42,935 nt of DNA from positions 1-42,935 of the IMG/VR virus record IMGVR_UViG_3300027690_000121. The stretch is one strand, 5' to 3'. A model generated the notes under the pieces. It did not search any database, was not told the origin of the DNA, and was given only the letters and a program-made list of their open reading frames with translations. This stretch comes from a virus. Taxonomy: Duplodnaviria; Caudoviricetes. Shown piece by piece: positions 9,242-41,681 of the stretch (the stretch's first letter is position 1; every line of letters begins with the position of its first letter). Both the position numbers and the translations under genes were made by a program.

Positions 9242-9256
9242 GCTTGCACTCCTTTT

Positions 9257-10242: not shown

Positions 10243-10260
10243 GATTTATCCTCCTTTGCT

Positions 10261-10357
10261 TTGGTTGAATGGTTGATTGGTTAATTAGTTAAATGGTAAA
10301 AACGGTGTTCTTCCGCCCGCACCAATTGACCAATCGACTAATCAACCAATTGACCAA
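10261..10357. repeat. Inverted arrays of 8-mer repeats (TTGGTTGA x5 ... ACCAATTG x5)
   Basis: ttggttga atggttga ttggttaa ttagttaa atggtaaa, ~20 nt spacer, then accaattg accaatcg actaatca accaattg accaat. Confidence 0.8.
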
Positions 10358-15818: not shown

Positions 15819-16309
15819 TCCTCGAATGTCCCTTCGTTGCCCTGCGACAGGACGTCCTGCTTGAACTTGTTCCAGATCAGGGTCCTTAGCCCTTTGCCGA
15901 TCGCAGTTCCTACGTCCTGGGAGCGCACCTGGAATAAAAAAATGTCCGAAAAGCAGGTGTCCTGCATATCGTCACAGGTGCCCGTCCCTTCGCCCGTGCA
16001 GCATGGATAGGGATCGCCGGCCCCGACGCACTCGTCGTTCGAGCCCGGAACCTCGATGTCTCGACAGGTCCACTGCTTCCACGGCGTCCGACCCACGTAG
16101 GCCGCGCTGCTCCCGTCCGCGTTCGTCCAACGATAGTGGACGATCAGGAGCTTCTTGTTGGCGTCTATCCGGCTGACATACCATTCGAGATGCTGAGCCG
16201 TAGGATCGGAAATGATGGTCTCGCCGCTTTGCAGCGTGACCATGTCCGCCGTGGCGATACCGCAAAAACCCAGCCACAGGAGCGCAAAGAAAAGAATCGC
16301 TTTTTTCAT
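15815..16309 (-). CDS. Exported Cys-rich protein (164 aa)
   Basis: Signal peptide MKKAILFFALLWLGFCGIATA; CVGAGDPYPCCTGEGTGTC motif. Confidence 0.75.
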   Translation of the reverse strand: MKKAILFFALLWLGFCGIATADMVTLQSGETIISDPTAQHLEWYVSRIDANKKLLIVHYRWTNADGSSAAYVGRTPWKQWTCRDIEVPGSNDECVGAGDPYPCCTGEGTGTCDDMQDTCFSDIFLFQVRSQDVGTAIGKGLRTLIWNKFKQDVLSQGNEGTFEE

Positions 16310-18192
16310 TATTCCACCTCCAGATAATGTCCCGCGAAATTGAAGTAAACCTCGTCATCCGTTATGGCCCAGCCGACAAGCTGCACGCAGTCCCCCGAAT
16401 CGGACGGCGCGGTCTGGGTCAGCGTGGAGCCCGTCCCTCCCTCGCCGAGATAAATGGGGCCGCCGATGGTCGTCCAGTTCCAGCCGTCGTTTCGAACGAT
16501 CCCTTGCACCAGAACCGTGATGGGGTTGCCGTTTGTGCTCGCGGCTACCGCGATGCCGCGGGCCGGAAACTTTCCTCCCCCCGTGGCGGCGTCCGCCACC
16601 ATGAACTCGGTGTCGCTCGCGCTGAAATAGACGCAGTCCCACTGGGCGATGGCCTCCCCGCCGTTCTTGCCCACAATGGCGGTCCCGTTCCAGTCGTCGT
16701 CGGCCATGTTGTCGGCGGTGGCGTTGAGGTAGATTTTCGCCGTTGAAGTGGAGCCGGCAATGGCGACGCTGGGCGCCGCGCTCGTCCCGGCGTTGGTGAT
16801 CTTCACCATATCCACCTGGGCCGGAGTGCCTCCCACGTCGTCCGTCGCCTGCAAGGCGAAATAATCGTCCGCAGTATCCACTTCGTTCCGGATGGTTTTG
16901 GTATCGGTCACGGTGGTATCCACGGCCAGGAGGTTGACGTGACCGCTCGCGTCCACGTCCGCCGCTGCGACCCGCTGGTAGGAGGAGCCGTCGGACACGT
17001 CGTCGAGGCTCACTGTTACGCTAAATGTGATGGAACTCCCAGAAGCGGTGATATCCATGCCGAGGCCCGTTAGAGTCAATTCCGCGCCGCTCGACGCGGC
17101 GGTCACGGAAGTGTCGTCCGTATCGGCCCATATCTTGGTGAATGCGCTTCCTGCATCGGCTTTCGCCGTCAGGCGAGAGGTGACATGATCGTAGATCTGG
17201 TCTGCCGTGGAGAAATGAGTCGTGTCCCCGTCGCTCGGCGCGGCTGTATCAGCCATCGCCGGCGTGATCACCGTGCTCGTGAGCTGCCCCGCCTCGCCCC
17301 ATGCCGCCGGGCTGTATGTCATCGCCGTTGATGATATTGTAACGTTCTCAAGGGTTCCTTCAGCGAGAGCCTCCACATTCGGGTGCACTTGAATCGTCAC
17401 TACGGCCCCCGATGCTGTCGGCGTGATCGCCACCGACGATCCGGCGGTCATGGTGATGGTGGAGGATGAGCTGTTCGCCGTGCCGCTGTCGGTGACAACC
17501 GTGTAGTCGCCGGCTCCGCCGCCCGCCGGAGAGGTCCACCCGCCCTGGCCGTTGAGGTAATGATCGGCGTCGTTGTCGAGCTTGGGGCAAAGGCCGTGCG
17601 CGGAGGTTGAGACATTCGCCGTGCTGTTGTCGCTGAGATTGAGCTCCGTCTCCTCGACGGTGTTGCCGATGTCGCTGTAATCGGTCCCGGCCGTGGCCGT
17701 CACCGCCCCGCCCGATCCGTCCGCCTTGAGCATGACGCCGGAGGTGGTGTCAATCTTCGCCGCAACGCCCAGGTTCGTCCTGGCGCCCGCAGCATCGCTC
17801 GCCCCGGTGCCTCCGTCCGCGACCGCAATGTCGGTGCCCCCAGGCGCAGAATAGTCCGTGCCCTCGGTGGCCGTCACCGCCCCACCCGATCCATCCGCCT
17901 TGAGCATGACGCCGGAGGTGGTGTCGATCGGTGGCGCATAGTCCGTACCCTCGGTGGCCGTCACCGCCCCACCCGATCCGTCCGCTTTGAGCATGACGCC
18001 GGAGGTGGTGTCGATCTTCGCCGCAACGCCCAGGTTCGTCCTGGCGGCCGCGGCCGTGGTGGCGTTCGTGCCGCCCTTGTTCACGTCCATCGCGTTGTTG
18101 GAATCACCGTCGCAGTCGATGTCAGCCCCGTGGGCGAGGCCGGCCGCGGCGAGAACCAGGCAAAGGATGAAAATCCGGATCCATTTGCTCAT
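16309..18192 (-). CDS. Exported fibre-like protein with internal repeats and C-terminal capsid-cement (DUF2190-like) domain (627 aa)
   Basis: Signal peptide ending AHG-A; GGT.A..AA.ARTNLG phage fibre motifs; Ser/Thr rich; C-terminus resembles the 20323-20823 protein. Confidence 0.75.
   Translation of the reverse strand: MSKWIRIFILCLVLAAAGLAHGADIDCDGDSNNAMDVNKGGTNATTAAAARTNLGVAAKIDTTSGVMLKADGSGGAVTATEGTDYAPPIDTTSGVMLKADGSGGAVTATEGTDYSAPGGTDIAVADGGTGASDAAGARTNLGVAAKIDTTSGVMLKADGSGGAVTATAGTDYSDIGNTVEETELNLSDNSTANVSTSAHGLCPKLDNDADHYLNGQGGWTSPAGGGAGDYTVVTDSGTANSSSSTITMTAGSSVAITPTASGAVVTIQVHPNVEALAEGTLENVTISSTAMTYSPAAWGEAGQLTSTVITPAMADTAAPSDGDTTHFSTADQIYDHVTSRLTAKADAGSAFTKIWADTDDTSVTAASSGAELTLTGLGMDITASGSSITFSVTVSLDDVSDGSSYQRVAAADVDASGHVNLLAVDTTVTDTKTIRNEVDTADDYFALQATDDVGGTPAQVDMVKITNAGTSAAPSVAIAGSTSTAKIYLNATADNMADDDWNGTAIVGKNGGEAIAQWDCVYFSASDTEFMVADAATGGGKFPARGIAVAASTNGNPITVLVQGIVRNDGWNWTTIGGPIYLGEGGTGSTLTQTAPSDSGDCVQLVGWAITDDEVYFNFAGHYLEVE
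17678..18045 (-). repeat. Three intragenic ~80-100 bp repeats encoding IDTTSGVMLKADGSGGAVTAT(E/A)GTDY
   Basis: Near-identical DNA (gtggccgtcaccgccc...ttgagcatgacgccggaggtggtgtc) at about 17680, 17850 and 17940. Confidence 0.9.
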
Positions 18193-19211: not shown

Positions 19212-20312
19212 TCACGGTGAACGGCCTAAAGCGCTCTCCCGAATCCCCAGCCACGCGAGCCCCATGAGCGCCAGGGGCGCCACGTGGAACGTGAACCACC
19301 CGGCCGAGGAGACCGCCGCGGCCGAAAGGCCGGCGATCGCCGCCGCCTCGGCCCGGCCGATCGTCTTTCGCCTCCGCCAGGCCGTCATTGCCAGGTGCGC
19401 CACGAAGGCGAAGATGAACCCCATCGCCGGCAGGCCCAGTTCGAAGCCCGCCTGCAAATACTCGTTGTGGGCGGATTTCCACCACACGTCCGTGGAGAGC
19501 ACGGGCTTGTTCCCCACCCGGGCGATCTCCACGGTTTTGGTGAGCTCCGCGTCTCCGGCGATGAAATAGGGAAAGATCTGCTGGAACGAGCCCAGGCCCC
19601 GCCCCCAGGGCGCCGAGTCATAGGTCTGGACCACGTGGCGCCAGATGCGGAAGCGCGGATCACCGAGAGTGCGGTCCACCGGGTCCACCATGTGGATGAG
19701 AAAAATCATGCTCCCCATGACCGCCAGGCCGGCCGCCACAGTTTTCCATCCGGGCCGGAGGCGCAGGGTGAAGTAGACCGCGATCCCCACGCCGGCCGCG
19801 ATCGCCGCGGTGGTGGAAGCGGTGGCGATGATCAGCAAAACGAGCGCCGGGATCGCCGCGCCCCACCAGCCCTGGAAGGCCGGGAGGGAAAGCGCCAGGT
19901 AGACGCCCGCCGAGCCCGGGTTGAAGAACCCGGCGGGACGGCCGAATTTGTTATAAAGGGGGACCAGGCCGATCACCTGGAGCGCCATCAGCGCCGCCAG
20001 GCTCAAGGCCCCGATCCGGATCGCCGCCATGAGCCGGTCCGGCTCGACCTCCCGGAAAAGATCCACCGCCAGGAGCCCGAGGACGATCATGGCGAACGAG
20101 GCGTAAGAGATCGCCGCCGGGTGCCATACGATTTGGATGAGCGCCAGGAGCGCGAAAATCCTCCGCCACCAGGAGCGCATCAAAAGCGCCGCTCCCAGGC
20201 CCGCGGACCAGACGAGCAGGAGCTCCCAGCCCTCGCGGCAGTTCCAGCCGGGCACGGCCAGGACCGGGGAGAGGGCCAGGAGAAAGAGCGGAATGGCGGC
20301 GATTCGCTTCAT
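19212..20312 (-). CDS. O-antigen ligase / O-oligosaccharyltransferase-like polytopic membrane protein (Wzy_C family)
   Basis: About 10 hydrophobic segments; GFFNP, R.RIW, GRGLGSF and AHNEYLQAGFELGL motifs of the WaaL/PglL family. Confidence 0.85.
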   Translation of the reverse strand: MKRIAAIPLFLLALSPVLAVPGWNCREGWELLLVWSAGLGAALLMRSWWRRIFALLALIQIVWHPAAISYASFAMIVLGLLAVDLFREVEPDRLMAAIRIGALSLAALMALQVIGLVPLYNKFGRPAGFFNPGSAGVYLALSLPAFQGWWGAAIPALVLLIIATASTTAAIAAGVGIAVYFTLRLRPGWKTVAAGLAVMGSMIFLIHMVDPVDRTLGDPRFRIWRHVVQTYDSAPWGRGLGSFQQIFPYFIAGDAELTKTVEIARVGNKPVLSTDVWWKSAHNEYLQAGFELGLPAMGFIFAFVAHLAMTAWRRRKTIGRAEAAAIAGLSAAAVSSAGWFTFHVAPLALMGLAWLGIRESALGRSP

Positions 20313-20974: not shown

Positions 20975-23551
20975 TTACACTTCGGCCTTGTAGCCGCTGC
21001 GGTAGTCGATGACCGCCCCGGCATACTCGTGCCGTCCTTTGTGCCGGATCTTGTCCGCCACGAACACCTGCTCCGACTGGGGCATGTCCGCCACGAAAAA
21101 TTCCGGCTCCTCGTTGCCGTTGAGATACCCCATCTCGATCATGTCGATGACGCTCGGAGGCATCAGGAGCCCCCAGTCCGCCGTGTCGGTGAGCAGCGTC
21201 ACCTGCACCGGGTTGACGCGCTTGTAGAGCGGATTGGGTAGCTTGGTGGTGAGATCGTTCGAGGAGTAATAGAACTCCTCGTTCGCCACGCGGCCGGCCA
21301 GATCGAAGATGTCCGGCGGGTGGACCAGGTTCGGCTTCACGTCCACGCCGTCCAGCAGCCCGATCCGCTTGGAGTTGTCCTTCTCCGTGGTCTTCGCCAG
21401 GAAGAGCCACGCGGTCTTGGCCGTGGAGTGGCTGAGGGCCGAGGAGCCCAGGTTTCCGTGCCCGCTGGTGAACCAGGCGGTCGCGTCCGAGCAGTTGGAG
21501 TTATTGACGAAGAAGTTCCACACGTACTGGCCGTGGGTGCGGGCGAAAGCCCGGCCGAAGGCGTCCACGAGCCTGGTGATGAGCAGGATGTCGTCGTTGA
21601 TGATGGTTTTCCGCGTGATGGTGAGCAGATTTCCTTTCTGCCCCAGCGTGTAGGTGGACTCCTCGTCCGTCACTCCTGCGATCTCCTGGTAGTCGGCCGC
21701 CTCGGGATCCACGTCCGCGATGTCCGGGAACCCGCCCACCAGCACCGCTTCCTGCTGCCGGAAGTCCCTCACCGGCTTACGGATGGAGATGAGGACGTCC
21801 GTGTGGAAGTTCATCTGCCGGTAGGCCCGCACAAGTCTCCTTCCCAGGGTGTTCCCGAGCACGTAGGTGAAGGTGGCCGAGGTGATGTCCGCCCTTGCCC
21901 TGAGCTCCGCCGGGAGACGGCTGCGATAAAACCGGCCGGAAACCTCCGGGTCGCCGGTGAGATAGGTGTACATCTCCCGGATGGATTGAAAGGCCGGCAC
22001 CTCGTCGAAAGCTTCGAGGTCCTGCATGGAGCGGGCTTCGAGGTCTTCGAAGAAAGGCCGGTGATCGAGGCGGGTGTGCTTCTTGGCCCACTTCATGTCC
22101 TCCAGGGTGAGCCCGAGCATGCGGTCCGCCGCCATCTGGATGCGCTCGAAGCTTCCCAGGCCCAGGCCGATGCCTCCGGCCGGAACGGGATCATCCTTCC
22201 GACTCGCCTTTTCCACCGCGGCCAGGAAGTCCTTCATGTCGTTGACAGCCCGGGTGAGCTCGTCCGCCTCGAAAATTCTGTCCTTGAAATCCGAGCGCAG
22301 CCTTTTCACCGCGTGCTCGGGAAGTCCCGAGCCCGCGAGGGTCCGCTCCAGATCCATCTCGCAGCGGAACTTCCTGAATTCGTTCTCGTCCACGAACTTC
22401 CCGCCGTCTCCGGGCGGGTCGTCCTTTGCGGGGGGCGGATCCGCCTTTTTGGGCGGCTCCATCGCCATCCGCGCCAGGCCCGTGATCTCCTCGTCGGTGA
22501 GCGCGTTCGCGTCTTTCCCTTCGAGGAGGTCCGGGCGCTTTTCCTGCAACAGCTTCAAAAGCTCCTCTCGATTCATGATTCTCCTCCCCTGATGGTTTTG
22601 GGCCTGACGGGACGCCACGGCCCGGATAAACTTGCCGCCCGCAGCGGGGCGGGTCACGATATCTACAGAGTCAACGCCCAGAAACTTCGTCACCCGGCGC
22701 ACGACTCGTCCTTCCATCTCCTCCATCCTGGCTTTTACCGGCGCGTCGTAGCTGAGCCCGTAGACGCGCTCTCCCCCCTGCATGGCCCTGACCAGGTTCT
22801 TTCCGATCCACGCGGCCGAATCCAGGAAGTGGAGCACCCCGCGCAGCCCTTCGCCCGCCACGTAGCGCACCTTGTCGATCCAGCCCGCCTTATTCTTGAC
22901 GAGAAGCGACTTCACGTCGAATAAGGGATCGGGCACGTGGGTGGCGTCCGGGAGCTCGTATAGGTTTACGTCCGTTCCTTCGAAAAAAGAGGCCGCTTCC
23001 CGCAGCACCTCCTCATCCAGGAACCAGGGCTCCATATGCTTCGACAAACCCGGCTCGCAGATGACGACGTCCCACACGGCCCCCTCCGGGTCGCGGGCCT
23101 GGATCAGGCGCGAGGAAAGCTCCACGCGCTCGTCGCTTCCCCCGTTCTTCGCCCGCTCGATCCAGCTCTGCTCCATCTCGGTCTCCTCGCCGCCGAACTG
23201 CACCTCGCCGCCCACGAGTCCATAGGAGACTTTGTAGTATTTGCCGTCGCGGTTGAAGATGAGATAAGACGGGAAGACCTCGTACACGTAGCAATGCTCG
23301 GACCATTTGTTTTGCACGGCGCTCCAGAGCATATCCCAGAGCTTATCCAGGCTCATGTCCCCCCTGGCTCTCCACTCGCCGTCCTTCCCCTTCTCGTACT
23401 TCTCCTTGACGTTACTCCACGCTGCAGTCCTCGCCTTCTTCTCGTCCTTTGTCTCGGCGAGCACGGCGTTGAAGGTCTCCACGGCGATCTTCACCGCCCC
23501 CTCGGGCAGGTTCTTGGCCCAGTCGGGCGGTTTGTCGATGGTGTATGGCAT
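20975..23551 (-). CDS. Fused ChaB-like domain / prohead protease / scaffold / major capsid protein (858 aa)
   Basis: N-terminal LPEGAVKIAVETFN..AAWSNVKEKYEK.KDGEW (ChaB-like); GLSYD...SVDIVTRPAAGG (protease); ITRKTIINDD, GYLNGNEEP, DYRSGYK (Mu gpT-like capsid). Confidence 0.88.
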   Translation of the reverse strand: MPYTIDKPPDWAKNLPEGAVKIAVETFNAVLAETKDEKKARTAAWSNVKEKYEKGKDGEWRARGDMSLDKLWDMLWSAVQNKWSEHCYVYEVFPSYLIFNRDGKYYKVSYGLVGGEVQFGGEETEMEQSWIERAKNGGSDERVELSSRLIQARDPEGAVWDVVICEPGLSKHMEPWFLDEEVLREAASFFEGTDVNLYELPDATHVPDPLFDVKSLLVKNKAGWIDKVRYVAGEGLRGVLHFLDSAAWIGKNLVRAMQGGERVYGLSYDAPVKARMEEMEGRVVRRVTKFLGVDSVDIVTRPAAGGKFIRAVASRQAQNHQGRRIMNREELLKLLQEKRPDLLEGKDANALTDEEITGLARMAMEPPKKADPPPAKDDPPGDGGKFVDENEFRKFRCEMDLERTLAGSGLPEHAVKRLRSDFKDRIFEADELTRAVNDMKDFLAAVEKASRKDDPVPAGGIGLGLGSFERIQMAADRMLGLTLEDMKWAKKHTRLDHRPFFEDLEARSMQDLEAFDEVPAFQSIREMYTYLTGDPEVSGRFYRSRLPAELRARADITSATFTYVLGNTLGRRLVRAYRQMNFHTDVLISIRKPVRDFRQQEAVLVGGFPDIADVDPEAADYQEIAGVTDEESTYTLGQKGNLLTITRKTIINDDILLITRLVDAFGRAFARTHGQYVWNFFVNNSNCSDATAWFTSGHGNLGSSALSHSTAKTAWLFLAKTTEKDNSKRIGLLDGVDVKPNLVHPPDIFDLAGRVANEEFYYSSNDLTTKLPNPLYKRVNPVQVTLLTDTADWGLLMPPSVIDMIEMGYLNGNEEPEFFVADMPQSEQVFVADKIRHKGRHEYAGAVIDYRSGYKAEV

Positions 23552-24034: not shown

Positions 24035-24247
24035 CTATGCCGGTTCGAATCGAATTCCCCGGTCCCCCGGGTAGGGCTCCCTGTGATCGTGTCTTTCCTC
24101 GGTGATCTCCTCGGGAATCCCGTCCGGGAAAGCCTCACACGCAGGCATAGAGTTCTCCTCGACGCCTTCCTCCGTATCCCGATAAACGATGTCTCCGTGG
24201 AAATGCTTGCAGCCAATGCACTGTGCGCTTATATTCGGTGCTCCCAT
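24035..24247 (-). CDS. Small Cys/His protein, candidate immunity/partner of the MuF extension (70 aa)
   Basis: C..C.H...C.AFPDGIP..I....H..PYPGD.GI.FE motif; immediately follows the HExxH domain. Confidence 0.7.
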   Translation of the reverse strand: MGAPNISAQCIGCKHFHGDIVYRDTEEGVEENSMPACEAFPDGIPEEITEERHDHREPYPGDRGIRFEPA

Positions 24248-24249
24248 GC

Positions 24250-25017
24250 TTATTCTCCCAGCATCTTGAAAATTACACGCTCAAGCTCCGACGGCAGCAT
24301 TCCCCGCCTGTAGCCCGGCGCGGTCATCAAGGCGAAGGTTTCCGCGATCTCGTCGGGAATTTTCGCCGCGTACCAGCTCACGTTTTCCCGGAACCAGTCC
24401 CGCCTGGCGTTTCCGGGTGTGAGGAGTTTCGCCGCCGTCCGCTGCCAGTCCCTCACGATTTCATCGGTGGATAGAGCGTGGCCCAGCTCATGACGAAAAT
24501 TCTCCTTAGTCCTCGTCCGGGTGTATTCAACCGCGTATTTCTGTCCATCATGCCGAATTTCCCAACCCTGCCATTTAGCCAGTTGCTCGGCGGAAAGCTC
24601 GTCGGCTGTGCTCAAGCGAATTTTTCTTCCCTGCAGCCTCGTATAGCCCATATCGCAACGACCCTCATCGGTCTTTGTGACATAGAGCGTATCCACCGGT
24701 TTTTTCGCCATGTTCGGGTACTGCCGTCTCAGCCGATCCCATTCCCGGTTCACCTTGTTGAGCTTCGCCAGGCGCTCCGCGTCGCTCCCGAGCGGCTCGC
24801 CCCACTTTCCTCCTCCCTGGTAGTCCACCAGCCCCACGCCCATCTCCCTGGCCGCCCACCGTTCCGCCTCGACCAGGGTTCCAGCCGACGTGAACGCCGC
24901 CGGCTTCATGGGCGCGGGCTCGATCCCAGGCTCCGTGTACTCGGCCCGCTCCGTGTAGGGCGTGGGCTCCCAGGTCCTGGGCAATTTCTCCCAGTCCGGG
25001 AGAGTCAATACGTGCAC
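24250..25017 (-). CDS. HExxH zinc-metallopeptidase-like domain, in-frame continuation of MuF past a UGA
   Basis: RHELGH plus VSWYAA..PDEIAETFA third-ligand region; first codon is directly after the MuF TGA in the same frame; no well-spaced SD. Confidence 0.75.
   Translation of the reverse strand: MHVLTLPDWEKLPRTWEPTPYTERAEYTEPGIEPAPMKPAAFTSAGTLVEAERWAAREMGVGLVDYQGGGKWGEPLGSDAERLAKLNKVNREWDRLRRQYPNMAKKPVDTLYVTKTDEGRCDMGYTRLQGRKIRLSTADELSAEQLAKWQGWEIRHDGQKYAVEYTRTRTKENFRHELGHALSTDEIVRDWQRTAAKLLTPGNARRDWFRENVSWYAAKIPDEIAETFALMTAPGYRRGMLPSELERVIFKMLGE
24981..25017 (-). promoter_or_regulatory. Candidate bacterial SECIS hairpin downstream of in-frame UGA (25018-25020)
   Basis: UGA GUGCACGUAUUGAC UCUCCCG GAC UGGGAGA AAUUGC: 6-7 bp upper stem, G-starting loop about 20 nt from the UGA. 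Confidence 0.5.
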
Positions 25018-25791
25018 TCACCCGCAGTTGACCGACTCCTCGGCCGGCAATCCCGGCGCGTGGGGATAGGGGATGCCGCCCGGAAAGTCCTCGTCGAAAG
25101 GCACCACGACCCCGTCCAGGGCCGCATGGTTCGCTCGCGGATGGGCCTTGCCGCTGGAGATCCACTTCTTCTCCCACTCCTCCCCGGGGCTCCCCTTGAC
25201 CGTCTGCTCCTGCCGCGCTTCCCGGGCCGCGCTCTGCACCCTGGCCGATTCCGTCCGGGTGATGGTCTCGGCCCGGCTGAAGATGGTCCGGAAGACCCCC
25301 GGATCGGAGAGGTTCCGGCCGATCGCCTTCATCACCTCGAACTGGGGCTTCTGGCCCATCACGCCCAGGGTGATCTCGTTCGTGACGCGCTTCATCGCGT
25401 CCGCGGAAAGTCCCTTGACGAGGTCCGCGGAGTAGCCCTGGAGAATCGAGAGAAGCGTCCGGGGCAGCTCGGGAAGGGCGTATCCCAGACCCACGAAGTG
25501 AAGCGGCCCGTCCACCTGGTCGATCCCCGCGTTCCATACGTTCGAAGCGTGCGCCTCCTGGTTCGTTCCGAAGCGCTGCCGGAAGCCGTCCATCGCCCGC
25601 TCCACCGCCTCCTTCATCTGCGGAATGTAATACTGGTCCCACTCGGTCTCCGCGATCCGCGCCGCGATCTCCCGGCGCGACTGCTCCAGAATTTCGCCCG
25701 CCCTTTTGACCGCCGCATCGTCGAGCTTTCCCGCCCGGTCGATCAAGTCCCGGATCTTCCTCCCGTATGCCTGCTCCCGCCGTGTGGTCAT
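25018..25791 (-). CDS. MuF / SPP1 gp7-like minor head protein (257 aa; 513 aa if UGA is read through)
   Basis: RAETITRTES, KKWISS...PRANH..LDG..VP.DE.F, YPHAP.LPAEESVNCG motifs; follows the portal gene. Confidence 0.88.
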   Translation of the reverse strand: MTTRREQAYGRKIRDLIDRAGKLDDAAVKRAGEILEQSRREIAARIAETEWDQYYIPQMKEAVERAMDGFRQRFGTNQEAHASNVWNAGIDQVDGPLHFVGLGYALPELPRTLLSILQGYSADLVKGLSADAMKRVTNEITLGVMGQKPQFEVMKAIGRNLSDPGVFRTIFSRAETITRTESARVQSAAREARQEQTVKGSPGEEWEKKWISSGKAHPRANHAALDGVVVPFDEDFPGGIPYPHAPGLPAEESVNCG

Positions 25792-25962: not shown

Positions 25963-26193
25963 TCAATCTCCTTTTTGATCGGCGGACTGCGGCATGTCCC
26001 CGCGCACCCGCTCCTGACCGATCTCCGAATTTACCATCCTCCCCAAGCATCGGCTCGTGAACCGGAGCTGGCCCGCGTGGACGTGGCACACCTCCCAGCC
26101 GAACCCGCCCAGGACGAACCGGGTTCCCACCGGCGGAAGGAGCTTCTCCTTTTGCCGGTTGGGCAGGGTCCTCATGTCCACCTGCTCACTCAT
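25963..26193 (-). CDS. Hypothetical protein (76 aa)
   Basis: Overlaps portal stop, AGGAG SD. Confidence 0.55.
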   Translation of the reverse strand: MSEQVDMRTLPNRQKEKLLPPVGTRFVLGGFGWEVCHVHAGQLRFTSRCLGRMVNSEIGQERVRGDMPQSADQKGD

Positions 26194-27667
26194 TCCGATC
26201 TCCTGTGGAAGCGACGTCCTGCCGCGATCCCTCCCGGCGCAGTCGCTCCATCACCTCCCGCACCAGTGCCTCTTTCCCCTCGTAGTCCTCGGTCCCCTCC
26301 TCGCCCCGCTCTGTTCCCGGCGCCGCGTCCGGGTCGATCTCGATCCCCATCTGGCCCACGATGGCCGCGAAGATGCGGACCGCGTCCTCTTTCGCCACCC
26401 AGCCCCGCTCCTCGGCGATCGACAGCGCAGTGGCGAGCTGTGGAATGCCGTTCACCATCTTGGTCAGGTCCTTCTTCGAGATCTCCGGCATCTCCACCGT
26501 GAAACCTTCCTCCGCGGCCTGCTCGGAGAGCCTCCCCGCGATCACCGCCTGGTCCACCACGAACTGGCAGACCGTGGTGAGCACGTGCTTGAGATAGAGC
26601 TGGCGCTGATCCAAATCCTTGATGGGCACCTGGCCGAACTGCTCCGCCTCGGTCTGGTAGGCCTTGCCGCCCCCGCCGAACCAGCTATCCGGCCGGCCGT
26701 GGCTTCCCAGGATGAAGCTCTTCCCCATGTCGAAGCCTTTGGCGAAATCCCACGCCTGGAGGTTCGGCGCCACCGCCTTCCATTCGGCGTTCTCGTTGTG
26801 GGCGCGGAGGCTCCCGGGCTCGGGCGGAGGGTTTTCCTGGAGCCACTTCCGGATCTGGCCCTCATCCATCCCCTTCAGAAGCACGTCCCAGACGAAGTTC
26901 AACATGAACTCGGCCCGGTCCAGGAAATTGTACCCGTAGCGCTCCAGGCCGTCGATCCAGTCGAAGAGCGTCAAAAAGTCGCTCCTGCCCCTGGGGCTGT
27001 TGGGCGGATGGTTGATGGCGAAAAAGAAGCACTCCCCCACGAGCTTGTCGTAGGTGCGGGAGCGCGGATCCCGGTCCTTGCGGATCACCGCCATCTTCTT
27101 TCCGGGCCTTCCGGCCATGCCGCGAAGCTCCACCTGCTGCACCTGGCGCACGTTGGTGACGCTCACGTTCACCTGCTTGATCTGGCTCGGGTCCACGTAG
27201 CCCAGGACCACCTGGCCGTTGTGGGGGCTCACTTCCACGGGCCAGCATTGCTCGCCCAGGAGCCCGAGCCACATGGCGTACTCGGGGAAGTTGATCTCCA
27301 TCAGGTTTTCCTGGTCCTCCCAGAAGCGGTCCAGGATCTCCTGCACCTGGTCGTTCTCGCTCGTGACGCTCACCGGCTCGCCGAATAAAAAACCCTTGTC
27401 CATCGTGGCGAGTCTCCGGGTCATGGCGGAATGATCGTACATGTAGTAGGCGATCTCGAACATCCGGTCCTGCTGGATCGCGTAGAGGTCCCGGACGAAA
27501 GCCCCGCCCGCCGACCTCCGGTAGCCCTCGTTTTTCGGGTCGTAGTTGGCGGTGACCGGCAGGCTCGCCTTGATCCGGCTGACTTCCTCCTCCACCACCC
27601 CGCGGAGCTCCTCGCGGGTGACGAGCCCCGGCGCGATCAATTTTGCCGCTTTCTCTCTGAGGCTCAT
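26186..27667 (-). CDS. Portal protein (493 aa)
   Basis: Follows terminase; GEQ.WPV...GYVDP, RGRSD motifs; size typical. Confidence 0.82.
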   Translation of the reverse strand: MSLREKAAKLIAPGLVTREELRGVVEEEVSRIKASLPVTANYDPKNEGYRRSAGGAFVRDLYAIQQDRMFEIAYYMYDHSAMTRRLATMDKGFLFGEPVSVTSENDQVQEILDRFWEDQENLMEINFPEYAMWLGLLGEQCWPVEVSPHNGQVVLGYVDPSQIKQVNVSVTNVRQVQQVELRGMAGRPGKKMAVIRKDRDPRSRTYDKLVGECFFFAINHPPNSPRGRSDFLTLFDWIDGLERYGYNFLDRAEFMLNFVWDVLLKGMDEGQIRKWLQENPPPEPGSLRAHNENAEWKAVAPNLQAWDFAKGFDMGKSFILGSHGRPDSWFGGGGKAYQTEAEQFGQVPIKDLDQRQLYLKHVLTTVCQFVVDQAVIAGRLSEQAAEEGFTVEMPEISKKDLTKMVNGIPQLATALSIAEERGWVAKEDAVRIFAAIVGQMGIEIDPDAAPGTERGEEGTEDYEGKEALVREVMERLRREGSRQDVASTGDRNE

Positions 27668-29202
27668 GCCGCCTCCTTGTTTTCATCCCGGGTGTGTCTT
27701 CCCCTGCCCATCCCCGTGGGAGCGGCTTCCAGCCGCGAGAGCCCGCCGAAGATCCCCCTTCCCCTCATCATCCGCCCGAGCATGCCGGGCCGGTGAGGGA
27801 ACATGGTCTTCGGCCGCTCGGGTTCGCGGCCGGCGCAGGCGGCAAGCCCGCTCACCGCGCCTGCGTGGACCGCCAGGGCCAGGGCCCAGAACCGGTCCGC
27901 GTGTCCGCCCGGACCCGTATCCGCCTCGAAGCGGATGTTCCCGGCCGCGGTGGTGGTCTTGCGGATGGAGCGGAGATCCGCGCGGATCCTGTCCTCCCTC
28001 GGGATCCGGATTCCCTTGTCCTCGAATCCGGATCGCACGGGGTAGGCGAGCTCCTCCTTCACCGGCCCGGTGAAGCGCACCGCCTCCACCCGGTACTCCC
28101 CGAACTTCTGCTGCGCCCGCTCCGCGAACTGCATGCCCAAACCCGTGGCGTCGATGCAGCACCGTCTCACCTGGGGGAGGGCCAGGATCTCGTATAGGGC
28201 GCTTTCCTGCTCCGAGAAGGCGACTCCCTGGAGCTCCACGATCTTGCGCGTGAAAAGCGTGCCGGAAACCCGCTCGATCACCCAGATCACCGTGAGATCG
28301 TGCATGCGCCCCACGTCCACGCCCACGTAAAGCTCCGAGGCGAGCCGGTCCTCGATCCGGCCGGCCGCCGTCATCTCCCATTTTTCCGTGGCCCGGTACT
28401 CGCAGGAAGCGATGAGGTCGTAGCTCAAAAACGCCCCCTCGTCGTCCGCGGGAACGCACATGTACTCCTGCAAAAACTGCTCTTCCGAGGCGCACCCGCT
28501 GCGGATGAAATCGAAGTATTCCACCTCGTCCATCCCCAGGCGCTCGTCCCCGTCCGGAAGGGCCTCCTGGAGTTTGTATAAAAACCCCTGGTCGAGGGCG
28601 TCCTGGAGGGTCACCGTGTGGAGGGAGAAGCCCTTGGGATTTCTCCGGTGCTTCACGTCCTCCACCAGCTCGTTGAAGAAATTGGCCGAGCCCCGGTGGG
28701 TGGAGATGATCTCCATCTCTCCGCCCCAGGTGATCCCGGGATAGGCGATGGTGTAAAGCTTCACCGGGTCCGGGTGGAGCGCGAACTCATCCAGGATCCT
28801 CCCGCCCTTTTTCCCGGCCTGGGCGTCCGGGTTGGAGCTCATGGAGTGGATCCGCTTGCCGTTCGAGAATTGGAGCACGTAGGCGCTGATCCTTTTCTCC
28901 TCGTCGATGATGACCGCCCCCAGGTTCCGGGCCGCCGCGTCGAGCAACCGCGCGAACCGCACGCAGTCTTCCAGGAAAAGCCTCGCCTGGATCGCGTCCC
29001 GGCTCGACACCCACTGGTCGTTCCTGTTCTCCGACGGCGCGGTCCTTTCCACGGCTCCGTAGGCCGTGCCCCAGGAAATGCCGATCTGGCGGCTCTTCTC
29101 CATGAGCTTGAGGCGGCTGTGGTCGTCGATCCACCGCTGCTGGTAGGGGAGAAAGACTCTCTCCGGATCCTTCGGGATCTGCTTGGCGTTCCCCCTTCTC
29201 AC
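27664..29202 (-). CDS. Terminase large subunit (Mu gp28-like)
   Basis: LPYQQRW, EKSRQIGIS Walker A, ILDEFA Walker B, GVDVGR and HADRFWALALA nuclease motifs. Confidence 0.95.
   Translation of the reverse strand: MRRGNAKQIPKDPERVFLPYQQRWIDDHSRLKLMEKSRQIGISWGTAYGAVERTAPSENRNDQWVSSRDAIQARLFLEDCVRFARLLDAAARNLGAVIIDEEKRISAYVLQFSNGKRIHSMSSNPDAQAGKKGGRILDEFALHPDPVKLYTIAYPGITWGGEMEIISTHRGSANFFNELVEDVKHRRNPKGFSLHTVTLQDALDQGFLYKLQEALPDGDERLGMDEVEYFDFIRSGCASEEQFLQEYMCVPADDEGAFLSYDLIASCEYRATEKWEMTAAGRIEDRLASELYVGVDVGRMHDLTVIWVIERVSGTLFTRKIVELQGVAFSEQESALYEILALPQVRRCCIDATGLGMQFAERAQQKFGEYRVEAVRFTGPVKEELAYPVRSGFEDKGIRIPREDRIRADLRSIRKTTTAAGNIRFEADTGPGGHADRFWALALAVHAGAVSGLAACAGREPERPKTMFPHRPGMLGRMMRGRGIFGGLSRLEAAPTGMGRGRHTRDENKEAA
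27716..27738 (+). repeat. REP-like element GTGGGAGCGGCTTCCAGCCGCGA (related copies at 26205, 33278, 39219)
   Basis: GTGG tetranucleotide followed by GCGGCT/AGCCGC palindrome; four related copies in the same orientation. Confidence 0.65.
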
Positions 29203-29720
29203 AGGATCTGCTCCCTCAACTCCCGGATGGTGGCGGCGTCGAGTGTCGTCTTCTTCCCGGCCTTCTTGGCCGCCTCGTCGAACTTGTCAAGGAGCTGCGT
29301 CTTCAGCTTCTCCCTCGCCACGCTGGACATCTGGAGCCTGGCGAAATCCCCCAGGAGCTTCCCGATGTGCTTGACATCGATCCGGTCTCCGGCCTGCATC
29401 GCCTCCTGGAAGACCTCCATCATCACCACGGCGCCGAGCTTGGCCGTGGCCTCCTCGATCTTGAGCGGGTCCTCGCCCGCGGCCTCGATGATGGTCTTCG
29501 CCTGCTCGCCCACGAATTTCACCTTCTCCAGGGCGAAAAAATACTTGGCGTAGCGGCCCACGGCGCTCTGGCTGGATTTATAGCCCGCCTCCTCCAGCCA
29601 GTCCGCGATCTCCTGGTAGGTCTTCCGCCCCTCGCCCACCTCCACGAGCATTTCGTTCACGCGGGCGAGGATCTCCTTCGGGAAGCCCAGGAGCTTGCTC
29701 TTTCCGCGTCGTCTAACCAT
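29199..29720 (-). CDS. Mu gp27/DUF3486-like putative terminase small subunit
   Basis: SK...P...VNEML....TYQEIADWL...GY..S.SAVGRY HTH pattern; directly before TerL. Confidence 0.8.
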   Translation of the reverse strand: MVRRRGKSKLLGFPKEILARVNEMLVEVGEGRKTYQEIADWLEEAGYKSSQSAVGRYAKYFFALEKVKFVGEQAKTIIEAAGEDPLKIEEATAKLGAVVMMEVFQEAMQAGDRIDVKHIGKLLGDFARLQMSSVAREKLKTQLLDKFDEAAKKAGKKTTLDAATIRELREQIL

Positions 29721-30881: not shown

Positions 30882-31640
30882 CTAATGTATCTCGTCCACC
30901 AGGCCCCACGCCTTGGCCTTCGCGGCATTGAACCAAGTAGTCTTGTTCTCCATTTTGCCCCATTCCTCTACGGTTAGCCTGCTATGGGCCGCGAGTTTTC
31001 CCAGGTAGCGCTCCCGCAAAAGATCCATAAGCTCGTTCTGGGACCGTATATCCGAGTGGGTTTCCTGCCCCGGCCATTTCCAGATGGACGTCTCATGCAC
31101 CATAAAAATCGTGCCCGGAGCCGCCTGACGGTAGTTACACACGGCGAAAACCGGCACCGCGGCGCTCGCTACGATCCCGGAGGCGTGGGCCGTCACATAG
31201 AATCCCTCCTTTTTCGCCCGCTCAATCTCATCGGCCAGCGCGAGCCCCGAATGGGCGTCGCCACCCGGAGAATTGATAAAGACGATCAGCTTTCGGATTT
31301 TGGTGCTTGCCTTCAGCACGCAGATATCGTTCCACAGCCGGGACACATCGGATACGGTAAGACCCGAGAAGATCTTGACGTACGCTTTATCCCCGCAAAT
31401 AAAGGACAGGGTGGAGAGCGTCCCCTCCTGGTTCTGGATCTGCATCGTCCTAGAAATCCTGTCCGACGGCTCTACGGCCGCCGTCGCTATCCCCGCCGGC
31501 TCCACCTTGATCACGACCTCGTGGCGGACGGTTTCCGTACGCTCGGGGATTCCCGCGCACCCCGGCGCATACAGCATCACGCAAGTAACTATCAGTAATG
31601 CCGCGCTCAATGACCAGTATCTTTTTAGTAACTCCGCCAT
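30882..31640 (-). CDS. ClpP/crotonase-fold serine protease with N-terminal membrane anchor or lipoprotein signal
   Basis: INSPGGD, GIVASAA (nucleophile Ser), FMVH (His); hydrophobic N-terminus ending APGC. Confidence 0.8.
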   Translation of the reverse strand: MAELLKRYWSLSAALLIVTCVMLYAPGCAGIPERTETVRHEVVIKVEPAGIATAAVEPSDRISRTMQIQNQEGTLSTLSFICGDKAYVKIFSGLTVSDVSRLWNDICVLKASTKIRKLIVFINSPGGDAHSGLALADEIERAKKEGFYVTAHASGIVASAAVPVFAVCNYRQAAPGTIFMVHETSIWKWPGQETHSDIRSQNELMDLLRERYLGKLAAHSRLTVEEWGKMENKTTWFNAAKAKAWGLVDEIH

Positions 31641-33946: not shown

Positions 33947-34624
33947 CTACTCCCCCAGCTCCGCCACCAGCCGTTCGAACTCCCGGGCCTTGATCTTCAG
34001 CGCCGCCACCTTCTCCTTCGGCAAAAGCACGCCCCCGAACTTCTCCCCGATTTTTCTCAAACCATCTGCAAATTTCTCGGGGTTGCGGGTCATGCGCGTC
34101 AGGAAAGCATCCACCATTTCGATGGGGGCGGGCATGGGCACCTTGGGCCGGATCGGGCCGGTCATCCCGCTCCGGTCCACCAGCTCCTCCCACTCGAAGG
34201 AAAGCTGGGTGACCATATCCACCATCGCCGCCTGCTTGCCGCGCGACGCTTTGACGAGCCCCGTGAGCCCGCGCTTTCGGAAGGTGTCATAGAAAGCCTC
34301 GGCCTCCTGCTCGCTTTCCGCGATCCAGTATCCCCCGCCGCCCCCCGCCTTACTCAGGATCGGGATGTGGCTGTGCATGGTGAGGAGGTGATTGTGCATC
34401 CGCCTCACGTCCCGCTTCCAGAACTCGTGCCAGCCGCTCTCCCACGCCATGTGACGCCCCTCCAGTCTCGCCGCGAACTCCAGGGCCAGGTTATCGGCGG
34501 AGATCGCGTTCTCCTGCCCCACGTGCTCCTCCCAGAGAATCCCGGTGAACACCTCCTCGGCGTGCGTCAAAGTCCGCACGTGCCGCCCGGTCTTGACATC
34601 GATTCCCAGGTCTTCTTCTTTCAT
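33947..34624 (-). CDS. Hypothetical protein with probable winged-HTH N-terminus (225 aa)
   Basis: HVGQENAIS...RDVRR...IPILS...GGYWIAES pattern. Confidence 0.65.
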   Translation of the reverse strand: MKEEDLGIDVKTGRHVRTLTHAEEVFTGILWEEHVGQENAISADNLALEFAARLEGRHMAWESGWHEFWKRDVRRMHNHLLTMHSHIPILSKAGGGGGYWIAESEQEAEAFYDTFRKRGLTGLVKASRGKQAAMVDMVTQLSFEWEELVDRSGMTGPIRPKVPMPAPIEMVDAFLTRMTRNPEKFADGLRKIGEKFGGVLLPKEKVAALKIKAREFERLVAELGE

Positions 34625-38229: not shown

Positions 38230-38930
38230 GCGCCGTTCCCCCGGAGTCCCTGCTTGATGGCGATCTTCACGGTGTCGTCCGTCACCTGGTCGAGTTTATT
38301 CACCTCAACCAGCTCCTCGATCCGCCGCACATCCCTGGAGACCAGGCGAAAGTCCCCCTCGGAGGCCTCCCGGAGCATCTCCGCCTGTCCGGCGCTCAAT
38401 TTGAGCTCAGCGGCCTGCCGGGCGAAGAAGAGGATGTCCTGGCTGGTGATGGGGCCGAATTCCACCGAGCGGAGAGTCCGGCTCCAGACCCTTCTCTCCC
38501 GCTGCATCTTGTGGACGATGAGCTTTTCGCCCACGAGCGCAAAGGGCACCTGGGTCAAGTCCGCCAGGTCCCGGACCACGTCCAGGGCGTTCTGGGTCAT
38601 CTTGTCCGCCTCGTCGATCAGGACCGAGCGCGGACTCCTGGAGAGCGCGTAGACGATCGCCTCAAAGGCGTGCTTTTTCCTTCCCGGAATCGGGTCCACC
38701 CGGAGCTCGAAGCAGAGATCCTGCAGCATCCAGAGCTCCGTCCAGAGCCTCTTTGCCCTACAGTAGGTCCAGTCCTCCTGGGCCGCGAAAAACCTTGCCG
38801 TGGAGGTCTTCCCCCGTCCCGCCTGGCCGTGGAAGACCAGCAGCACCGGCTCTCCCACAGTCTTTTCCGCCTCTTTCATGGCGGAGATGAAATTCTTGAC
38901 ATTCTGAGTATGGACAAAGACGTTTTTCAT
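38226..38930 (-). CDS. MuB-like AAA+ transposition ATPase (234 aa)
   Basis: GQAGRGKT Walker A, VLIDEAD Walker B; ATGA overlap with the transposase. Confidence 0.9.
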   Translation of the reverse strand: MKNVFVHTQNVKNFISAMKEAEKTVGEPVLLVFHGQAGRGKTSTARFFAAQEDWTYCRAKRLWTELWMLQDLCFELRVDPIPGRKKHAFEAIVYALSRSPRSVLIDEADKMTQNALDVVRDLADLTQVPFALVGEKLIVHKMQRERRVWSRTLRSVEFGPITSQDILFFARQAAELKLSAGQAEMLREASEGDFRLVSRDVRRIEELVEVNKLDQVTDDTVKIAIKQGLRGNGA

Positions 38931-41002
38931 GCCTTCCCTTCCTCCTCTCCCGCGAGCCACAGCTCGCGGAGGAACTCGAAGCGCTCCCGGAGGCTCGCGT
39001 AAAGCGCGGTCCCCTCGAAGTAGCGCATGAATCTCATGTCCTCCAGGGTGAGCTCCCCGCCCCGGCATTCCCGCTCAAGGAGCGCCTCGTAGCGGTCCGG
39101 CTCCGTCATGTAGACCGGGTCCGCCTTCTTGGGCCGAAGCTCCAGCACCTTCATCTTCGCCGCCGCCTCCTCGATCCGCTCGGCCTCCACGGGAGTGAGC
39201 CCGATCACCTTTCTCCCCGTGGGAGCGGTTTCGAGCCTCGCGGATCTCTCGGGCAGTTCCACAAGCTGCGGGGCCTCGGCCACGTACGCCCGCCCTTCGA
39301 GCTCCGTCCTCCTTTTGAGCGCCCGCTTCCTCCTGATCTGCTCCTTCACCTCGGCCAGGTCCTCTTTATTCCCCCCGATCCTGGCGATGGGGTGGACCTT
39401 CTTCACCGCCTCCGCCTCGCAAATGAGCCTCGCCCCGGTCTCATCATAGACGAGCACCCGGGACAAATCCTCATAGTCGTAGCGCACGGTGACCCGGCAC
39501 TTGAGCCCGTAGAGCGCATCATCATAATAATGACGACCCAGGAGATTCACTCCGTTTCGTCCCACCTGGTCGATCTTCATCCCCATCATCAAATGCCGGA
39601 GCGCCCCCTCGTCCACTCCCGGCCCCCGGCCCGACTCGAAGAGATCCTCCGGCCGGAGCCCCCGGAGCCCCTTGTGCTCCCTGGCCGCGTACTCCTCCAC
39701 CCAACCAGCGATGATGCGGTTCGTCTCCTCGATGGTCGGCACCCAGCCGCCGTACTTCTTCTCGTGGATCGCCTTGTGGAGCCGTTCGTTCCGGAGAAGG
39801 TGGGCGGGCTTCTCCTGGATGGAGAAGCCCGTGTAGGTGGGAAGAAGCCGTTCGAGCTCCCCGAAGGTGCCGAAGAAGCGCTCGACCGGCTTGGATTGGG
39901 CGTTATAGGGCCAGGCGAAAATGGTCTCGATCCCGAGGCGGGCGAACATGCCGTAAAAGCCCGCCTCCTCGAAGTCCACATCCCGGCTCGTGAAAACCTT
40001 GGCCTTGAAAGCTTTGCCGTTGTCGAGGTAGGCGACGCGCGGCATCTTGCCCAGCGTGAGAATCGCCCGCCGGAGTCCCGCCGCCACGCACTGGACGTCC
40101 TCGGTGGGCATGATCTCCCATCCCGCCGGCATCCGGCTCGCCCAGTCGTACCAGAGGACCATCGCCGGCCGGCAAGGCTTGCCCGTGAAAGGATGGAGCA
40201 CCTGGAAGTTGAGCATGTGCCCGTCGGCCACCAGGACCTCGCCCACTTCCAGGAGCCCCGCGTCCCGGTCGAGGTAGGGGAGGCACTTGTCCACCAGGGC
40301 CTTCTCTCCCTCCCGGCACCAGATCCAGCGGTCGTAGTTCGTCCGGATCCAATCGTCCAGGGACCTGCGCAAGGTATCGATGGAGGAGGGCGACTCGATC
40401 CCGCGCTTCTCCAGCGCGAGCTTCGCCAGCCTCACCACCTCTGCTTTCCGGAGACGGTTCGGATGCAAGCCGAAGCTGAGCATGGTGTTGAACTCCTCCT
40501 CGGTCACCTTCCGCTGCCCCTTTCGGTTTCCCCACTGCGGGGCGAGCACCGCGTAGTCATAGCCCGATTCCCGGTACTCCTTGAGCCACGCCTCGACGGT
40601 CTGGCGCGCCGTCTTTCCGACTACCTTGTAGACTTTGGGCAGGAGATGACCGGTGTTATACCCGGCGATAAAAACCCCGGTCGCCTCCATCACGGATTTC
40701 TTCGCCGCCTTGGCCTTCCTCTTCTCCTCCACGTAGGCGCGCAGGAGGTCGGCCCTGGCGAGCGCGATCTCGTTCTGCCAGTCGGCGAGATCAGGCGATC
40801 CCACCGGGATTCTCACCGGCGCCGGCGCCGGAAGGGTGCCGGCCGTGAGCGCGATCCGCACGTCCTGGGGCAGCGTGTCCACTTTGTACTTTCGATCCCC
40901 CCGCCCGTTCGTGGCTTCGTAGGGCCACGCTTCTTTGAGCGCACGTTTGTTCACCGCGCGCTTACTCACTCCCATCGCCGTCGCAATCTCCGCCGCCGTC
41001 AT
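38927..41002 (-). CDS. MuA-like DDE transposase (691 aa)
   Basis: N-terminal Mu HTH (MTAAEIA...KRA.KE.W); VADGH, YLDNGKAF, SKPVERFF catalytic DDE; C-terminal beta-barrel. Confidence 0.95.
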   Translation of the reverse strand: MTAAEIATAMGVSKRAVNKRALKEAWPYEATNGRGDRKYKVDTLPQDVRIALTAGTLPAPAPVRIPVGSPDLADWQNEIALARADLLRAYVEEKRKAKAAKKSVMEATGVFIAGYNTGHLLPKVYKVVGKTARQTVEAWLKEYRESGYDYAVLAPQWGNRKGQRKVTEEEFNTMLSFGLHPNRLRKAEVVRLAKLALEKRGIESPSSIDTLRRSLDDWIRTNYDRWIWCREGEKALVDKCLPYLDRDAGLLEVGEVLVADGHMLNFQVLHPFTGKPCRPAMVLWYDWASRMPAGWEIMPTEDVQCVAAGLRRAILTLGKMPRVAYLDNGKAFKAKVFTSRDVDFEEAGFYGMFARLGIETIFAWPYNAQSKPVERFFGTFGELERLLPTYTGFSIQEKPAHLLRNERLHKAIHEKKYGGWVPTIEETNRIIAGWVEEYAAREHKGLRGLRPEDLFESGRGPGVDEGALRHLMMGMKIDQVGRNGVNLLGRHYYDDALYGLKCRVTVRYDYEDLSRVLVYDETGARLICEAEAVKKVHPIARIGGNKEDLAEVKEQIRRKRALKRRTELEGRAYVAEAPQLVELPERSARLETAPTGRKVIGLTPVEAERIEEAAAKMKVLELRPKKADPVYMTEPDRYEALLERECRGGELTLEDMRFMRYFEGTALYASLRERFEFLRELWLAGEEEGKA

Positions 41003-41280
41003 GACTCGCTCCTGTCCAGCTTCCTTGGGATGCACCAGTAAAGCTCCCCCAGCTCGCGATGGATCGCCTCCTTCACCCTCCGGCTTTCTCGTCTCCCGGC
41101 CACTACCAGTGAGATGGTGACTCGGCCGACCGGCGGATCCAGGGTTCTTCCGATCGCCGCAAACGACATCGATTCGCCTCGACTGGTTTTTACTCCCGCA
41201 GCCTGGAGCGAAATCATTCTCTTTTTCACAATCGCGGCGGTCTCTTTTCGCCACCGTTCCATCTTCACATCTTTCTTCAT
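40999..41280 (-). CDS. Ner/Cro-like DNA-binding protein (93 aa)
   Basis: SFAAIGR....R.TISLVV.GRRES.RV..AI..ELG HTH pattern directly before the transposase. Confidence 0.65.
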   Translation of the reverse strand: MKKDVKMERWRKETAAIVKKRMISLQAAGVKTSRGESMSFAAIGRTLDPPVGRVTISLVVAGRRESRRVKEAIHRELGELYWCIPRKLDRSES

Positions 41281-41681
41281 GATTCCAGCGCCTCCAGCGC
41301 GATCCTCGCCTGTTTCGAGGCCCGGCGCTTGGCAAGCTCGGCCTTCCCCCACCGGAGGATCCGCACTTGCTCCTGGTCCAGGATCTCCCACTCCAGGGGT
41401 TTCACCATCGCCTCGATGGGACCCGTATCCCCGGTCACGAAGCAGAAAATCGTCAACCAGGCCGGCGAGGGCAGCCTGCCCGGGTCCGAGTCCTTCGCCC
41501 AGTTGTCCAGGGTCTGTCTCGAAATCGTCTGCCGCATTCCTTCCCGGACCGCGACCTCGTTCATCCGGTCCGCCACTTCGTCCCTGGAGTGATGCACGCC
41601 GGAGAGAGCGATTCGGATCCTTCTTTTGATCTCGTAGGTGGGATTGAGGGAATGAGTGTTGAAAAGATTTTGTTGTTTCAT
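41277..41681 (-). CDS. Phage regulatory HTH protein, CII-like (134 aa)
   Basis: SRDEVADRM...IS..TLDNW.......P....L..FC.VTG pattern. Confidence 0.65.
   Translation of the reverse strand: MKQQNLFNTHSLNPTYEIKRRIRIALSGVHHSRDEVADRMNEVAVREGMRQTISRQTLDNWAKDSDPGRLPSPAWLTIFCFVTGDTGPIEAMVKPLEWEILDQEQVRILRWGKAELAKRRASKQARIALEALES

Follow-up and report, generated by a model that had tools for sequence, protein, structure and literature searches.

Does the gene for a MuF-type head protein in this provirus end at an in-frame TGA, or is the codon translated and, if so, as which amino acid? In the window analyzed here, that is, the whole stretch of 42,935 nt of Caudoviricetes DNA, the codons before this TGA end with ESVNCG, those behind it begin with VHVLTLPDW, and the frame then stays open for 255 codons, just as the original prediction had described. 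The gene lies on the minus strand; the plus strand was considered as its coding strand and rejected. Among 30 TGA-ended window ORFs that were checked, none has a longer in-frame run behind the stop, the next longest being 199 codons. The gene and its surroundings are organized as follows:

25791 to 24250, minus strand: MuF gene with in-frame TGA, from ATG 25791 to TAA 24250 (257 codons, TGA, 255 open codons)
25021..25791, minus strand: MuF/gp7 head-morphogenesis region, 257 codons, ending with N-C-G
25018..25020, minus strand: in-frame TGA, the putatively recoded codon, at the invariant second Cys of a C-x-C motif
26186..29720, minus strand: upstream packaging genes (Mu gp27-like, terminase large subunit, portal)
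20975..23551, minus strand: downstream ChaB-capsid gene
38927..41335, minus strand: Mu-type transposase (PHROG 310, E 4.5e-104)

The region upstream of the TGA matches Pfam PF04233 (Phage_Mu_F) with 39.8 bits (cut-off 29.6) and PHROG 2468 with an E value of 5.9e-24, and the AF2 model of a relative with Cys at this position (P0012, pLDDT 93) matches minor capsid proteins in BFVD. Among solved structures, none matching the MuF domain was found, only generic helical bundles. On the Mu-like provirus, the gene lies between those for portal and capsid; "provirus" is also the classification of the record, and the presence of a Mu-type transposase identifies the element as a transposable prophage. The nearest relatives from cultured phages are distant (best 31.7% identity over 75%). 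As had been predicted, UGA is an ordinary stop elsewhere in this phage: it ends 35 of the 52 listed window ORFs and also several TGA-form MuF genes after their tails, and a reassigned genetic code was therefore rejected. The window harbors no tRNA gene.

Whether the TGA is peculiar to this copy was assessed with the homologs. Among the matches listed (120 of 127, including the window protein itself), 59 of the 119 non-self homologous proteins stop at the TGA position and 59 continue with Cys, mostly for about 28 residues that match the post-TGA frame of the window, while one looks frameshifted; this classification was made from protein sequences, with five rows missed by the pattern, of which four were assigned by eye. 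The codons themselves were counted in 201 loci from three collections, gathered by alignment (a pattern scan of viral contigs with a single read-through protein gave no match); six loci fell short of the motif and five lacked it, and the remaining 190 represent 163 distinct loci. The codon for the second Cys is TGC in 99, TGT in 44, and TGA in 20 of them, the latter including the window's own contig (L123), whereas TAA or TAG was found in none of the 163. The first Cys is encoded by TGC or TGT in 163/163 loci, and the second is invariant in all 44 aligned Cys forms. Thus, Cys and TGA alternate at a conserved position, in agreement with the original prediction, which had placed the UGA at a conserved MuF cysteine and had named recurrent alternation among homologs as the observation to look for. 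TGA occurs in 17 of the 41 loci scoring 300 or more and in none of the 73 scoring below 100, so that all TGA forms are found among the closer relatives. The frame behind the TGA is open for 15–33 codons in 18 of the 20 distinct loci and for 255 codons in two. A 21st TGA locus (L204), with a tail of nine codons, came from a scan of genomes.

These counts bear directly on the possibility that the TGA arose from a sequencing error or from nonsense mutation during decay of the prophage, a caveat that had been attached to the prediction. The classification of the record as a provirus and the dispensability of SPP1 gp7 for assembly, as given in the available text of PMC6316719, would be compatible with decay. 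However, the presence of TGA in 19 other distinct loci among the 163, plus L204, excludes a one-off nonsense mutation or error, and also contradicts the notion that only this copy has TGA. In addition, the complete lack of TAA and TAG, the unbroken first Cys codon, the conserved tails described below and the open structural genes adjoining the MuF gene do not fit with decay. The contigs at depth 30 show no alternative letters, although they come from one run, possibly the source of this DNA, and are not independent data. Mutation or error can hardly account for the codon.

The alternation was also traced on a tree, on which the Cys/TGA label changes 13 times, with seven changes forced by starred branches; the tree was calculated with a quick method from 82 rows (score of at least 130, at least 200 residues) and only the residues upstream of the codon, and a more careful search was unfinished. 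Switching between the two forms has thus occurred repeatedly. In one locus (L153:2654-2690), the first rather than the second Cys of the motif is replaced by TGA; this locus has a 7-bp hairpin with the loop AGUGUG at +19 and an extension of 296 codons with an HExxH motif, and is a case in which the recoded codon was placed independently. In two other loci (L045 and L054), extra sequence is present directly after the first Cys, within the C-x-C motif, and looks as if an intein or Hint domain began there. The matches of related loci to the ChaB-capsid, portal and terminase genes contain no aligned TGA except at gene ends. NCBIfam has no model of a Sec-form MuF.

If the codon is translated, the sequence behind it should resemble the tail of the Cys forms. 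The following elements are located there:

24934..25017, minus strand: conserved MuF tail of about 28 codons, H-V-L-T...D-W...Y, including a predicted beta-strand
25006..25008, minus strand: in-frame TTG, a possible separate start of the C-terminal part; an SD-like site in front of it overlaps the TGA

With a profile built from 56 Cys-form tails, the window tail scores 35.1 in frame vs. −43.8 and −28.2 in the other two frames, and 0 of 1,000 shuffles scored as high. The first 12 post-TGA codons score best in frame in each of the 21 TGA loci, with at most 4 of 1,000 shuffles as high; the scores are 25–37 for the 14 nearest loci and −10 to +1 for the seven distant ones. In the model of P0012, a strand (258-263) directly follows the Cys; in the numbering of this protein, His221, Cys255 and Cys257 are invariant, and His259 and Trp266 nearly so. 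Natural short MuFs of the subfamily end about 28 residues after the Cys or TGA. A stop at the UGA would therefore yield a clipped MuF domain, unlike a natural short MuF, because the predicted strand and the conserved His and Trp lie beyond the UGA. Judging from this conservation, His222, Cys256, the recoded residue and His260 of the window protein may form a metal site, probably for zinc, or a redox site.

The same stretch allows another reading, namely, that MuF stops at the UGA and that the peptidase domain described below is a second gene starting at the TTG at 25008. The original prediction had stated that the GTG downstream of the TGA has no properly placed Shine-Dalgarno motif. This holds (−2.9), but 9 nt further on the TTG is preceded by an SD-like site of −6.8 kcal/mol at a spacing of 8, which is as strong as the sites of some real genes in this DNA, and a gene call of 252 aa starts exactly at this TTG (P0140). 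However, the codons from the TGA past the TTG form the tail of the MuF core, which is conserved also in TGA forms without any further coding sequence, TTG is present at this codon in only 2 of 14 TGA forms, and it is the Gly codon together with the TGA that gives rise to the SD-like site. A minor product may be initiated at the TTG, but the family pattern is left unexplained by it, and a division into two genes appears extremely unlikely.

Read-through of the tail leaves the question of how a stop codon would be decoded at this site. A SECIS-like hairpin about 20 nt behind the UGA had been predicted and is indeed present:

24987..25003, minus strand: SECIS-like hairpin UCUCCC-GGACU-GGGAGA, loop from +21 to +25 (24997-24993)

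It consists of 6 bp and the 5-nt loop GGACU, which starts 21 nt after the UGA, and has a folding energy of −8.8 kcal/mol. The published bSECIS rule, as given in the available text of PMC13188914, specifies a loop of 3–9 nt, a stem of 4–16 bp, a G in the first two loop positions, a distance of 16–37 nt from the UGA and an energy of at most −7.5. The window hairpin agrees with this consensus (5-nt loop, 6 bp, 20 nt, −8.8). A loose version of the rule passes 21/21 TGA loci, yet also 37 of 55 TGY loci. Compared with shuffles of the whole region, the hairpin yields z values from −0.26 to −1.91, which are not significant; in three of five folds of the region a competing stem displaces it, and in a fourth the minimum-energy structure extends the hairpin, while the centroid lacks it. 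Compared with synonymous-codon resampling, the z value is −2.0 (p 0.02). Taken alone, the window hairpin is unremarkable.

The comparison of TGA and Cys forms is more informative. A hairpin with a G-led loop at +19 to +23 and an energy of −4 or better was found in 18 of 20 TGA loci vs. 10 of 55 TGY loci (score of at least 150), with thresholds that were set after seeing the data and loci that are related to each other. In the same score range, the median z value against synonymous resampling is −1.94 for TGA and +0.22 for TGY loci, and, by the same rule, a hairpin follows only 1 of the 29 ordinary TGA stops of the window. Relatedness is taken into account by independent pairs on the tree: on average, the hairpin goes with TGA in 5.7 of seven pairs and against it in 0.0 (median p 0.031), and, with a stricter loop rule, the values are 5.0 vs. 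0.0 (median p 0.0625). In the near subfamily, base +21 is G in 14/14 TGA forms vs. 3/12 Cys forms, across six different codons. Hairpin and TGA are thus linked, and the predicted conservation of the hairpin with the TGA was borne out. RNAalifold found no consensus structure for the 21 TGA loci, the register of the stem sliding between loci; in a fixed register, covariation is 0.335 vs. 0.209 after shuffling, and with a slide of −1, 77% of the cells are paired vs. 73%. In two Cys forms (L029 and L145), the SECIS position is still occupied by a strong hairpin (−7.8 and −10.0); they are possibly recent reversions from TGA.

The hosts were analyzed for the Sec machinery. The closest genome-borne relatives of the window protein are from Syntrophobacteraceae (61%) and Thermodesulfobacteriota (49%). 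A canonical-looking tRNA-Sec(UCA) is present, together with selA and a TGA-containing selD, in the four strongly matching host genomes. In seven of seven host selD genes examined, hairpins with G-led loops start at +17 to +23, one of them weak (−1.6). In three genomes (G001, G002 and G004), the Sec genes are present, but the MuF gene has the Cys form. Scans for further hosts yielded matches in 2 of 401 (the phylum of G001), 4 of 96, 1 of 122 and 1 of 13 genomes; the five matches from the 96 genomes are all Cys forms, and the only TGA form added was that of G217, drawn from the same phylum as G001. This genome combines the TGA form L204 with selA, selB, two TGA-containing selD genes and tRNA-Sec(UCA). 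Conversely, a bin labelled Saccharibacteria (G003) holds the TGA form L084 on a contig of 4,033 bp, and no selA, selD or selB above the cut-off and no tRNA-Sec were found in it; misbinning of L084 is plausible. The host evidence on TGA forms thus consists of one genome for and one bin against. The host of the prophage would be a Sec-using anaerobe of the Desulfobacterota kind. In addition, G001 contains a second selB-like gene with one internal TAA (G001:C20:34382-36280) beside a tRNA-Sec-like match (34234-34321).

The UGA could also be recoded with the aid of the hairpin while the inserted residue is Cys, carried by a tRNA-Cys with a UCA anticodon, or another amino acid inserted by leaky read-through. 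Such a tRNA-Cys system has been reported from some deltaproteobacteria; a literature search found no paper on it. The sequence alone cannot name the residue, and Cys is tolerated at this position in 143 of the 163 loci. Against another residue stand the four strong-match host genomes with their tRNA-Sec(UCA), selA and TGA-containing selD, and leaky read-through explains neither why TAG and TAA are missing nor why the codon is linked to the hairpin. Another residue than Sec is thus very unlikely.

It is very probable, as far as sequences can tell, that the UGA is read as Sec by SelB and tRNA-Sec of the host, resulting in a 513-residue fusion of MuF and peptidase with a C-x-U motif. The core of the original prediction, a site-specific recoding of UGA, most likely to Sec, via a SECIS-like hairpin, therewith gained strong support. 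The SelB of the host would bind to the hairpin and bring Sec-tRNA to the UGA, read-through would generate a single protein, and Sec would stand in for Cys in the presumed site of His222, Cys256, the recoded residue and His260. The Sec codon would belong to the MuF core and be exchangeable with Cys. By analogy to SPP1 gp7, the fusion protein may reach the interior of the head via the portal.

The part of the protein that depends on read-through comprises, behind the tail, a domain of its own, and it is followed by a small gene:

24250..24870, minus strand: zincin-like metallopeptidase domain, with HExxH at 24492-24478
24035..24247, minus strand: gene for a Cys-rich protein of 70 aa (PHROG 33375), candidate partner or immunity protein of the extension

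Pfam, PHROGs and NCBIfam yielded nothing named in the extension. Nevertheless, a search retrieved 99 homologs; HExxH is present in 95 of them, a MuF domain of the window kind was detectable in 17, and H, E, H and Y are invariant in 42 aligned sequences. The AF2 model (pLDDT 95) contains the HExxH helix and a downstream Glu helix, which characterize zincin-like MPTase domains. Among the fold matches, the catalytic domain of lethal factor ranks first (Z 10.4, rmsd 2.9, 157 aligned residues, 15% identity), followed by PPEP-3 (Z 8.8, rmsd 3.9, 151 aligned residues); the profile match to 2l0r (E 0.3) and the best Foldseek matches (E 0.03-0.04) are not significant. The likeness of the model to anthrax lethal factor and the PPEP family is one of fold only. 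An HExxH helix plus a downstream Glu-bearing helix is also what the available text of PMC5512222 describes for zincin-like MPTase domains of phage proteins with the lethal-factor/PPEP fold, and the extension fits with these domains and with MuF toxins (PMC5576092), 20% of which are metallopeptidases according to the accessible part of that paper. In contrast to lethal factor and PPEP, the window extension, which has 14–15% identity to them, is a single domain of 206 residues on a phage head protein. Autoprocessing has been proposed as an alternative role of such MPTase domains (PMC5512222, available text). A Cys form of the same subfamily (P0187, as in L014) has MuF and a related peptidase domain in one ORF of 526 aa.

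The 70-aa gene adjoins 4 of 11 long-extension MuF genes and none of 70 short ones, a distribution that would suit a partner or immunity gene of the extension. PHROG 33375 occurs only behind long-extension MuF genes, including L142, the extension of which lacks HExxH. A C-terminal enzyme domain followed by a small ORF is the hallmark of MuF polymorphic toxins and is found here, with the fusion depending on read-through.

The original prediction had further claimed that termination gives a short MuF and that the supply of selenium thereby sets the dose of effector. In this case, incomplete Sec insertion would have been selected as a selenium-dependent switch of the ratio of plain MuF to MuF-effector, which could overlay decoding as Sec. 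HExxH extensions are present in three TGA loci (L123, L084 and L153), and effector output would follow Sec insertion there; in L084 (2268-3040), a second TGA-form MuF, the extension of 255 codons is a different one. However, no extension is present in 18 of the 20 distinct TGA loci, extensions of at least 100 codons occur in two TGA forms and in four Cys forms (score 150 or more; compare L014/P0187), and termination at the UGA would remove the predicted strand and conserved residues of MuF itself. The occurrence of extensions on both forms indicates that the recoding is not there to meter extensions, and the claim about dosage was not upheld; a selected switch of this kind is unlikely. The peptidase domain has been added to the MuF core as a separate module that can be swapped, and its dependence on selenium is therefore a side effect of the recoding rather than what the recoding is for.

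On a broader scale, it is likely that this gene is one case among widespread temperate phages of selenium-using anaerobes, which would place Sec in a Cys/His site of a virion protein via a phage-borne SECIS, with repeated switching between Cys and Sec at either motif cysteine. Full infectivity, and in the case described here also a peptidase effector, would thereby be tied to the Sec machinery and the selenium of the host.

How does such a gene compare with known systems? It resembles bacterial selenoprotein genes with a bSECIS inside the ORF in that the UGA corresponds to Cys in homologs, other homologs have TGA as well, and a G-led loop follows 20 nt downstream, and CxU motifs occur in bacterial selenoprotein families listed in the same source (PMC13188914, available text). 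It differs from the genes described there in being encoded by a phage, which has no tRNA gene of its own, and in specifying a protein of virion assembly instead of a metabolic enzyme. With MuF/gp7 minor head proteins and MuF polymorphic toxins it shares PF04233 between portal and capsid, a variable C-terminal domain and a small downstream ORF (PMC5576092, PMC6316719 and PMC5512222, in their accessible parts); SPP1 gp7 is packaged in the head via the portal (PMC6316719). In contrast to known MuF/gp7 proteins, the conserved C-x-C is written here as C-x-TGA, and standard annotation splits or truncates such genes. The words "stop codon" and "cysteine" are absent from the main text on MuF toxins in PMC5576092, as far as it was available. 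Viral selenoproteins are known in the form of the glutathione peroxidases of poxviruses, that is, of molluscum contagiosum and fowlpox viruses (PMC8310308, available text). Like the MuF gene, these are viral genes using the Sec machinery of the host; however, the poxvirus enzymes are captured host genes with a eukaryotic SECIS, whereas MuF is a native structural gene of phages with a bacterial-type hairpin and repeated Cys/TGA switching.

In the literature searched, which comprised titles, abstracts, passages and few subscription papers, no natural phage selenoprotein was found, only an engineered M13. The available text of a selenoprotein review (PMC13188914) does not mention phage, virus or head; phage, head and capsid are likewise unmentioned in the main text and one possibly incomplete supplementary file of the BSepDB paper (PMC13326102), phage is unmentioned in the accessible part of PMC12013277, and in those of 10.1101/2022.07.06.499078 and PMC13745706 it appears only in unrelated uses. 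If decoding as Sec is correct, a structural head protein encoded by a bacteriophage would be a selenoprotein, one that belongs to none of the enzyme families making up the current lists of selenoproteins. Annotations would then wrongly present about half of the MuF subfamily as truncated, and would separate effector domains past the UGA from their carrier. Since Sec marks reactive sites, the swap suggests that the function of MuF/gp7 is centred on its C-x-C motif, which would become testable by selenium labelling. Phages with the TGA form would also be confined to hosts that use Sec, so that this form would both constrain host range and serve as a marker for host prediction.

Several further genes of the window deserve mention. 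Within the head-tail operon, 19212-20312 encodes a membrane protein of 366 aa without a PHROG match, which by eye presumably resembles an O-antigen ligase or polymerase. The interval between the capsid and neck genes (12001-18192) contains four genes for proteins of 627, 164, 404 and 868 aa, which begin with signal-peptide-like sequences and have almost no PHROG matches. A gene similar to Clp-type head maturation proteases, with a lipoprotein-like start, is located at 30882-31640 in the lysis region, away from the head genes. Downstream of the structural genes, short intergenic repeats, TTGGTCAATTGG-like and CGTTTAGAGCGTT-like, are present at 10243-10357 and 9242-9321.
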